From IMG/VR virus record IMGVR_UViG_2531839664_000027: a stretch of 64,000 nucleotides of DNA; one strand, 5' to 3'. Position numbers: made by a program. The stretch comes from a virus (lineage: Duplodnaviria > Heunggongvirae > Uroviricota > Caudoviricetes). Shown here in pieces: positions 24,001-27,000 of the stretch. Positions within the stretch are counted from its first letter, which is position 1. Every line of letters begins with the position of its first letter.

Positions 24001-27000
24001 AATTTCCCCAAAAACCCGCTCCCTCATCCTCTGGACAGAACGAGGCGCAGCCCGTCACGCAAAAATGCTCGAAACTGATCAGGCGTGGGATGTGTTCGAA
24101 AAACTGGAAGACTGCTATTTCAGCCAGTGCGAGAAAAATACTGGCAAACAAGAGAAGAAGCTCAACGGGCTTTCCGCAAAAGAAACAGACAGCCTTGTAT
24201 GGCTGTGGGATTATGCCAACCGCTCACAGGCATTGTTCCGTGAGTTGTATCCCGCATTAAAACTGATTCAGTCTGGCTATTCCGGCATATGCCACGACTA
24301 CGGCTATGAGTTCTCGTATATCATCGGGAGGGCGAGGGGCGTTTTAATTAATCACACGCGGGATATAGATATTTATGAGCCTGACGGGCCGACGAACCTT
24401 CTGGCATGGGAAAGGCTTAAGAACAAAGAGTTGCCGCCTTCACTGCATCGCTACTGACAATTGACAACTTAACAAACCCAGCTTCGGCTGGGTTTTTTAT
24501 TGCTGAATTTTCAATGTGAGAGGACATGACAATGAATGAGCTGATAAATAGCAATGCCATCAAAATGACAAGCATTGAAATCGCTGAGTTGGTGGGAAGC
24601 CAACACGGTAATGTCAGAATATCAATAGAACGTCTGGCAAAGCGTGGGGTGATTCAACTTCCTTCAATGCAAAAAGTTGAAAATAAACAAACAATTAGCC
24701 CTAACAAATTCACAAGCGTGTATATATTCGAAGGCGAACAAGGTAAGCGAGACAGCATTATTGTCGTCGCTCAGTTGTCGCCGGAATTCACCGCTCGCCT
24801 TGTTGACCGCTGGCGAGAACTCGAAGGGGCAACCGCGAAAATACCACAAACCTTTTCTGAGGCATTGCGCCTTGCGGCCGACCTTGAAGACCAGAAGGCT
24901 GAACTGGAGAAACAGCTTGCTCTCGCAGCACCTAAAGTTGAGTTTGCCGATCGAGTTGGCGAGGCCAGCGGAATTTTGATTGGAAACTTTGCAAAGGTTG
25001 TTGGTATTGGTCCAAACAAACTGTTTGCGTGGATGCGCGATCACAAAATCCTTATTGCTTCAGGTGCCCGGCGCAATGTGCCAATGCAGGAATATATGGA
25101 TCGCGGCTATTTCACAGTGAAAGAAACAGCGGTCAATACAAATCACGGAATACAGATATCGTTCACCACAAAAATCACCGGGCGTGGTCAACAGTGGCTG
25201 ACAAGAAAGCTGCTAGATAACGGAATGCTTAAAGTAACAGGGGAGGCTGCTTAATGGCTAAACCAGCGCGAAGGAAATGCAAAATCTGTAAGGAATGGTT
25301 TCACCCGGCATTCTCAAATCAGTGGTGGTGCAGCCCGGAACACGGAACTAAATTAGCGCTCGAACGACGAAATAAAGAACGCGAAAAGGCGGAAAAAACA
25401 GCAGAGAAGAAACGACGACGAGAGGAGCAGAAACAGAAAGATAAAATTAAGATTCGAAAACTCGCCTTAAAGCCCCGCAGTTACTGGATTAAACAAGCCC
25501 AACAAGCCGTAAACGCCTTCATCAGAGAAAGAGACCGCGACTTACCATGTATCTCGTGCGGAACGCTCACGTCTGCTCAGTGGGATGCAGGCCATTACCG
25601 TACAACAGCTGCGGCACCTCAGCTCAGATTTGATGAACGCAATATCCATAAGCAATGCGTGGTGTGTAACCAGTACAAAAGCGGAAATCTCGTTCCGTAT
25701 CGTGTCGAACTGATTAACCGCATCGGGCAGGAAGCAGTAGACGAAATCGAATCAAACCATAGTCGCCACCGCTGGACTGTCGAAGAGTGCAAGGCGATCA
25801 AGGCAGAGTATCAACAGAAACTTAAAGACCTGCGAAACAGCAGAAGTGAGGCCGCATGACGTTCACCGTAAAAACCATTCCTGACATGCTTGTTGAGGCA
25901 TATGGAAATCAGACCGAAGTGGCCCGAATACTGAACTGCAATCGTGCCACAGTCAGAAAATACATTGGCGATAAAGAAGGGAAAAGACACGCTATCGTCA
26001 ACGGTGTTCTTATGGTTCACCGCGGATGGGGTAAAGATACTGATGCGTGATATCCGGCAGGTTCTTGAGCGCTGGGGGGCATGGGCGGCAAATAACCATG
26101 AGGATGTTACATGGTCGCCCATTGCTGCCGGATTTAAGAGGCTGATCCCCGAAAAAGTAAAATCACGTCCACAGTGTTGTGACGATGACGCGATGATTAT
26201 ATGCGGGTGTATGGCTCGCCTTAACAGGAACAACAGCGATCTGCATGACTTGCTGGTTGATTATTACGTGTTGGGGGAGACGTTCATGGCGCTGGCACGG
26301 AAACATGGGTGCTCTGACACCTGTATAGGTAAACGCCTTCACAAAGCGGAGGGGATTGTTGAAGGCATGCTGATGATGCTGGGAGTGAGGCTTGAGATGG
26401 ATCGGTATGTTGAGCGTGAATTGCCGGGAGGGAGAACCTCTGTATTTTATCAGCGAAAAAATAGTTTACGATCGTAAAAATCTGCATATCATGATAAGAG
26501 TGGTTACATTGCCACGCTGCTTAACCCGCCGATGCGCGGGTTTTTTTGTACCCAGAATCCTGTGAGCTATACGGAAAGTACACAGAAAGGAAGGTGCGAC
26601 CACAATTAATAACAAAATCTTAAAAATTGCACATGGCACTATTAGTTTTCTAAATATTGTGTATTTTTTGTATTGCAGGATGACCCTGTAACGAAGTTTG
26701 CGTAACAGCATTTTGCTCTACGAGTTTGCCAGCCTCCCCCAGTGGCTGGCTTTTTTATGTCCGTAGCGTCAAAGCAGCAATGTCGCTGGGGCGTCGTGCA
26801 ATTGGCGTTGAGCTGGAGACTGAACGTTTTGAGCAGACGGTCAGGGAAGTTCAGGATTTAGTCAGTCAGAACGGATGATATTGCAGGATTAGTTACGTAC
26901 CGTTATTATCCTGCGCCCGGCCCTTTAGCTCAGTGGTGAGAGCGAGCGACTCATAATCGCCAGGTCGCTGGTTCAAATCCAGCAAGGGCCACCATATCAC

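Follow-up and report, generated by a model that had tools for sequence, protein, structure and literature searches.

A probable DNA methyltransferase pseudogene at a module join between tR' and the tRNA-stx2 genes of an Stx2a prophage

Organization of the region between Q and stx2

The stretch of phage DNA analyzed here (64,000 nucleotides, hereafter the window) carries, on its + strand, a late-gene control region followed by tRNA and toxin genes. The late promoter pR' (26465..26492, TTTACG-16-TATCAT) overlaps the end of the Q gene and was placed by a consensus promoter scan together with the annotation of 933W, which was carried over to the window by ungapped alignment. Further downstream lies the intrinsic terminator tR' (26728..26756, + strand), with a GCCAGCC/GGCTGGC stem, a 9-nt loop and a T6 run, whose hairpin appears in both the minimum free energy and the centroid folds. 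A simple terminator scan missed it because of the 9-nt loop, and its identity is confirmed by folding, by the 933W annotation and by published Term-seq data. In these data (Sy et al. 2020, PMC7547250), the 3' end of the StxS-L RNA maps 258 nt past pR'; counted from a start near 26499, this distance leads to the T-run at 26751-26756, so that the second hairpin of the region (26728-26756) is tR' and forms the 3' end of this 258-nt RNA.

The first hairpin, a strong terminator-like structure with a T7 run known from the transferred 933W annotation (26523-26547, + strand), lies in the 5' part of StxS-L, only some 25-50 nt past the pR' start, yet by Term-seq StxS ends at the second hairpin and not here. 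The segment 26476-26546 is the sole part of the interval between Q and the methyltransferase-like frame described below that is kept (~82%) in phages with an intact methylase gene, and it may be part of a Q-loading or pause region, or may serve as tR' in those phages. An Rfam search of 26300-27400 returned three tRNAs only and left StxS unmatched, and the RNA fold of 26700-26920 contained no exceptional structure besides the tR' hairpin (z = -1.7).

Downstream of tR' and of the short methyltransferase-like frame lies pT, a putative tRNA promoter annotated in 933W (about 26881..26910, + strand, TTGCAG-17-TATTAT). It begins 3 nt past the stop codon of that frame, and its sequence is identical downstream of the intact genes of EH2246, 12E129 and ASU11, while phiP27 differs at one base. 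A primary transcription start site driving the tRNAs has been mapped between tR' and stx2AB (PMC7547250). Three + strand tRNA genes follow, each supported by ARAGORN, Rfam and the 933W annotation: ileZ (26919-26994; tRNA-Ile2, anticodon CAU, called Met by ARAGORN), argN (27004-27080; UCG) and argO (27094-27170; UCU). Right after them, on the same strand, stand stx2A (27261-28220) and stx2B (28232-28501), identified as open reading frames and by phage annotation, which makes the window an Stx2a prophage. Many Stx2a phage records, for example PA2 and the LC616xxx series, match this region at 100% identity.

Elsewhere in the window, an IS3-family element of about 1264 bp is present in two copies that are 99.9% identical (5155-6418 and 54345-55608), with the initial ~400 bp of the second copy perfectly duplicated in tandem in front of it (53943-54344 = 54345-54744), and an additional IS3-family transposase frame occupies 11788-12678. 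A link between IS position and differences in virulence has been reported for PA2/PA8-type Stx2a prophages (PMC10810198). At 17697-20090 (+) the window encodes a 797-aa DnaB-type replicative helicase with an insert of about 340 aa that has LAGLIDADG/homing-endonuclease Pfam matches at aa ~393-454; judging by these matches, it is probably an intein-containing phage helicase.

A methyltransferase C-terminus without its body

Translation of 26600-26881 yields, on the + strand, the stop-terminated frame SVKAAMSLGRRAIGVELETERFEQTVREVQDLVSQNG*, with the stop codon at 26876-26878. A first-pass annotation had placed a short frame at 26762-26879, between tR' and the tRNAs, and had read it as the C-terminus of an N4/N6 methylase lacking an upstream body. 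The frame is real and its coordinates were right to within 3 nt; tR' (26728-26756) and the start of ileZ at 26919 do enclose it. The mechanically called open reading frame is longer (26726-26878, TTG start, 50 aa), and methyltransferase homology within it is confined to 26765-26875. These 37 codons together with the stop form the candidate remnant (26765..26878, + strand), equivalent to aa 316-352 of an intact 352-aa enzyme. The 13 codons before them (26726..26764, + strand; MPASPSGWLFYVR) are a spurious 5' extension: they are the translated tR' hairpin and T-run and have no methyltransferase homology.

The methylase reading held when it was put to tblastn. The 37-aa query matched methyltransferase genes of phages at E = 3e-16 to 4e-15, with hits in 297 phage records. 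The most informative relative is P27p24/L24 of phiP27 (NP_543076), an intact 352-aa DNA methyltransferase encoded immediately upstream of ileZ-argO-stx2e. Searched against the window, it gave a single match, aa 316-352 at 26765-26875, with 91.9% identity and E = 1.8e-15; over the same 37 residues the remnant shares 92% identity with phiP27 and 86.5% with 12E129 and ASU11. Searched against phages, the phiP27 enzyme matches EH2246, the Stx2c phage JNE091235, mEp460, N15 gp52 and phiKO2 over 97-100% of its length, and Stx2a phages of the window's type over aa 316-352 only. The 64-kb window encodes nothing else of the enzyme, in agreement with the missing upstream body, and a search for the 65-aa open reading frame that precedes the intact genes found none in the window either. 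A gene split by insertion or rearrangement was rejected on these grounds, as neither the N-terminal body nor the 65-aa frame is found elsewhere in the window.

Profile searches of the short frame are less telling. Pfam matched the 50-aa product to PF01555 (N6_N4_Mtase) below threshold (E = 0.075, 13.4 bits, cutoff 26.7), over the very end of the profile (positions 196-220/221), and NCBIfam contained no matching model, so that the case rests on comparison with the intact genes. The intact proteins match PF01555 at E = 1e-43 and 150 bits, as well as the solved beta-class enzymes M.RsrI, CcrM, MboIIA and DpnA. Phage phiP27 L24 and its orthologues in EH2246, 12E129, ASU11, Stx2c phages, mEp460, N15 (gp52) and phiKO2 are thus late-region DNA (adenine) methyltransferases of the PF01555 beta class.

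Protein alignment of the intact enzymes puts motif IV (TDPPYF) at aa 34-39 and the AdoMet motif I (DFFMGSGST) at aa 308-316. The remnant starts at the last codon of the DFFMGSGST block and lacks FMGSG; neither the (D/S)PP(Y/F) of motif IV nor the FxGxG of motif I, by which the beta class is recognized, is encoded. What is left is just the helix and strand that follow motif I and then the C-terminal tail. By what is established about the motifs of amino-methyltransferases, a remnant that has lost both the AdoMet loop and the catalytic motif cannot methylate DNA and cannot be a methyltransferase.

Translation of the fragment also appears doubtful. Its sole in-frame upstream start is the TTG within the tR' stem, and inspection of the sequence revealed no Shine-Dalgarno sequence before TTG 26726 or before the internal ATG 26780, which is preceded by GTAGCGTCAAAGCAGCA; as judged from these features, the remnant has no credible translation start. 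All copies examined keep the reading frame open, free of frameshifts and internal stops, an observation of little weight for 37 codons with few substitutions, in which decay is not demonstrated.

The junction between two modules

An intact gene occupies the syntenic position, directly upstream of the ileZ-arg tRNAs-stx2 block, in phiP27, the Stx2a phages EH2246, 12E129 and ASU11, and Stx2c phages. The remnant and the intact genes of phiP27, EH2246, 12E129 and ASU11 share the stop codon and the downstream pT-ileZ-arg tRNA-stx2 context, whereas the window is without the first 315 residues and the upstream 65-aa frame, and the fragment directly adjoins the tR' of another Q module, the methylase-homologous DNA starting 9 nt past this terminator.

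The two flanks of the fragment have different relatives. On the left, 25800-26765 is 95.9% identical to the Stx1a phage SH2026Stx1, with abrupt divergence afterwards: the homology runs from Q to exactly 26765 and is then replaced by stx1 upstream sequence, with neither tRNAs nor remnant. H-19B and SH2026Stx1 thus have the same Q-pR'-StxS-tR' module as the window up to 26765, but continue with the stx1 promoter region and stx1 in place of the methylase remnant and tRNAs. A total of 291 phage records, 47 Stx1a phages and H-19B among them, contain the 217 bp of 26548-26764. On the right, 26768-27300 is 98.1% identical at the DNA level to EH2246 and 90.4% identical to phiP27, and blastn homology to both continues from 26768 through the tRNAs into stx2A. 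Upstream of 26765, phiP27 and EH2246 share with the window only ~55-70 bp after Q (26476/26491-26546, ~82%), comprising the pR' start region and the first hairpin; between the shared segments they have ~1.4 kb (the 65-aa frame plus 315 methylase codons) where the window has ~220 bp.

With different relatives on its two sides, 26765-26768 is, on these alignments, the boundary of two modules. The recombination junction is resolved to about 3 nt (26765..26767), Stx1a homology ending at 26765 and intact-methylase homology starting at 26768. A crossover at a microhomology between the tR' T-run plus ATG and the motif I codons GAT TTT TTC ATG was considered and rejected: Stx1a phages match the window 9 nt further, to 26765, which places the crossover at 26765-26768 and not at the T-run/ATG. 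The likeness to motif I is treated as a coincidence or, at most, as a facilitating similarity. In mEp460, the intact methylase gene is directly followed by a holin gene, which fits an older order of Q, methylase and lysis genes, with tRNA and stx genes inserted downstream of the methylase.

Two alleles of the remnant

The remnant exists in two alleles that share the junction, that of the window (also found in PA2, ArgO145, TL-2011c and the O104:H4 phage) and that of 933W and Sakai. The Stx2a prophages of the 933W, EDL933 and Sakai Sp5 type carry the pseudogene with the same junction, length and position as in the window, and are 96.4% identical to it over the 221-bp stretch of tR', remnant and pT. 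The alleles differ at 8 of 111 nt (26783, 26788, 26820, 26821, 26823, 26824, 26855 and 26858), resulting in five amino-acid changes. Identity is complete over the final 20 nt of the remnant and all downstream sequence compared, to 28120; no allele differences occur in 26684-26782 or in 26859-28120.

In a comparison of nine sequences, four of the eight differences involve states present among intact alleles, while the other four involve states found in no intact allele: 26783 (Ala->Ser) in the window, and 26788 (synonymous), 26820 (Thr->Ser) and 26858 (Leu->Val) in 933W. Three non-synonymous changes and one synonymous change, both alleles taken together, are too few for a formal test; as far as such small numbers go, nothing in the pattern indicates a protein under purifying selection. 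The patchiness of the allele differences suggests recombination with diverged alleles in addition to point mutation. Over the wider interval 26000-28120, differences from 933W/EDL933 are likewise clustered, in mid-Q (~26097-26292), StxS (~26518-26682) and the remnant (26783-26858), a mosaic that suggests repeated short-patch recombination.

Prevalence and existing annotation

With coverage of 80% or more required, at least 542 of 5426 complete E. coli genomes have the 221-bp tR'-remnant-pT stretch. It contains an ordinary, known feature that RefSeq lists as a pseudogene, with PGAP describing the same 114 nt of EDL933 (EDL933_RS35085) as 'site-specific DNA-methyltransferase; incomplete; partial in the middle of a contig; missing N-terminus'. 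Phage records treat it differently. The 50-aa frame is annotated as a CDS in PA2, PA18, PA28, ArgO145, ST2-8624 and phage 86, and in PA2 and ST2-8624 the 153-nt CDS with its tR'-derived extension is labeled 'putative DNA methylase'. Methylase or methyltransferase CDS labels appear in KP682371 (PA2), KU238070 (ST2-8624), NC_049918, NC_008464 and NC_041935, and one deposited record adds a ribosome-binding-site feature. As the start of this CDS lies within the tR' hairpin, the methylase annotation is an artefact of over-annotation, and the 153-nt CDS does not belong in counts of methyltransferases.

In ~45-kb Stx2a phages, the interval from q to the tRNAs has been described as containing a regulator and a site-specific methylase, both of which a ~61-kb group lacks there (PMC8456039). 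A literature search found no paper on the truncated gene itself and only this statement of presence and absence.

Discussion

Taken together, the comparisons indicate, with a probability of about 0.92, that a DNA methyltransferase gene of a phage late operon left its 3' end at 26765-26878 as a non-functional pseudogene when two modules were joined. The ancestral order would have been Q, pR'/tR', the 65-aa open reading frame, the 352-aa beta-class N6/N4 methyltransferase, pT, the ileZ/arg tRNAs and stx2AB, an arrangement still present in phiP27, EH2246, 12E129, ASU11 and Stx2c phages. In the lineage to which the window belongs (Stx2a phages of the PA2, 933W and Sakai Sp5 types), illegitimate recombination would have joined a Q933-type Q-pR'-StxS-tR' module, also used by Stx1a phages, to methyltransferase codon 316, replacing ~1.4 kb (the small frame and 315 codons) with ~220 bp. 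The fragment would have no function of its own and would be transcribed only passively, in Q-antiterminated read-through from pR' between tR' and the tRNAs. Its persistence may reflect that it is short and young and abuts pT, which viable crossovers had to spare.

The first-pass annotation had regarded the frame as a scar from acquisition of the tRNA/stx module. The scar of a module join stands, its 5' edge coinciding with the boundary at 26765/26768, while the incoming side could be either module. The tRNA/stx2 module may have come in with a piece of its former upstream neighbor; or the original upstream part of a phage that already had methylase-tRNA-stx2 may have been exchanged for a Q933-type Q-pR'-tR' module. 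The second polarity is mildly favored because the intact methylase-tRNA-stx2 arrangement occurs in several unrelated Stx2 phage backbones.

Among the alternatives, the one that survives best, although improbable, is that the DNA or RNA of the remnant is kept for a role in cis, either as sequence upstream of pT (about -40 to -150) or as a leader or processing region of the pR' read-through transcript before ileZ. The end of the remnant lies 3 nt from the pT -35 hexamer, the tRNA start site mapped between tR' and stx2AB would be compatible with such a role, and the 3'-most 20 nt are invariant between the alleles, with EH2246, 12E129 and ASU11 differing there at one base only. This pT-proximal part is, however, equally conserved where it is ordinary coding sequence, and variation in the region peaks in the remainder of the remnant, with 8 differences in 26783-26858 and not one in the 1262 bp that follow; the unexceptional fold and the restriction of Rfam matches to tRNAs also speak against it.

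Still less probable, and very much so, is a real small protein, whether the 50-aa product of 26726-26878 or a 32-aa product from ATG 26780, as the GenBank CDS labels imply. The frame is open in all copies and is annotated as a CDS in the six phages named above, but its TTG start lies within the tR' hairpin and its first 13 residues are a translated terminator, neither start has a Shine-Dalgarno sequence, motifs I and IV are missing, the product falls under the Pfam threshold and matches no NCBIfam model, the substitutions between alleles are mostly non-synonymous, and PGAP calls a pseudogene. Chance resemblance of a short frame to a methylase, for which the insignificance of the Pfam match alone (E = 0.075) might be cited, has a negligible probability and is refuted by the 90-98% nucleotide identity to intact 3' ends, unbroken into the tRNAs and stx2, and by the tblastn E-value of 1.8e-15.

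It is unlikely that the 114-nt pseudogene is other than neutral and has since been co-opted, as a cis element tuning pT, as a determinant of the tR'-ileZ leader or its processing, or as a micro-protein of lytic growth. If true, a cis or micro-protein role would go some way to account for the fixation of a single junction in hundreds of Stx2a prophages.

Read as a pseudogene, the remnant is a molecular fossil of the join between the Q933-type Q-pR'-StxS-tR' module and the methylase-tRNA-stx2 module, of little importance alone but usable as an ancestry marker for the late regions of Stx2a phages. It separates its carriers, the 933W, PA2 and O104:H4 types, from the ~45-kb types with an intact methylase, a difference noted in PMC8456039.
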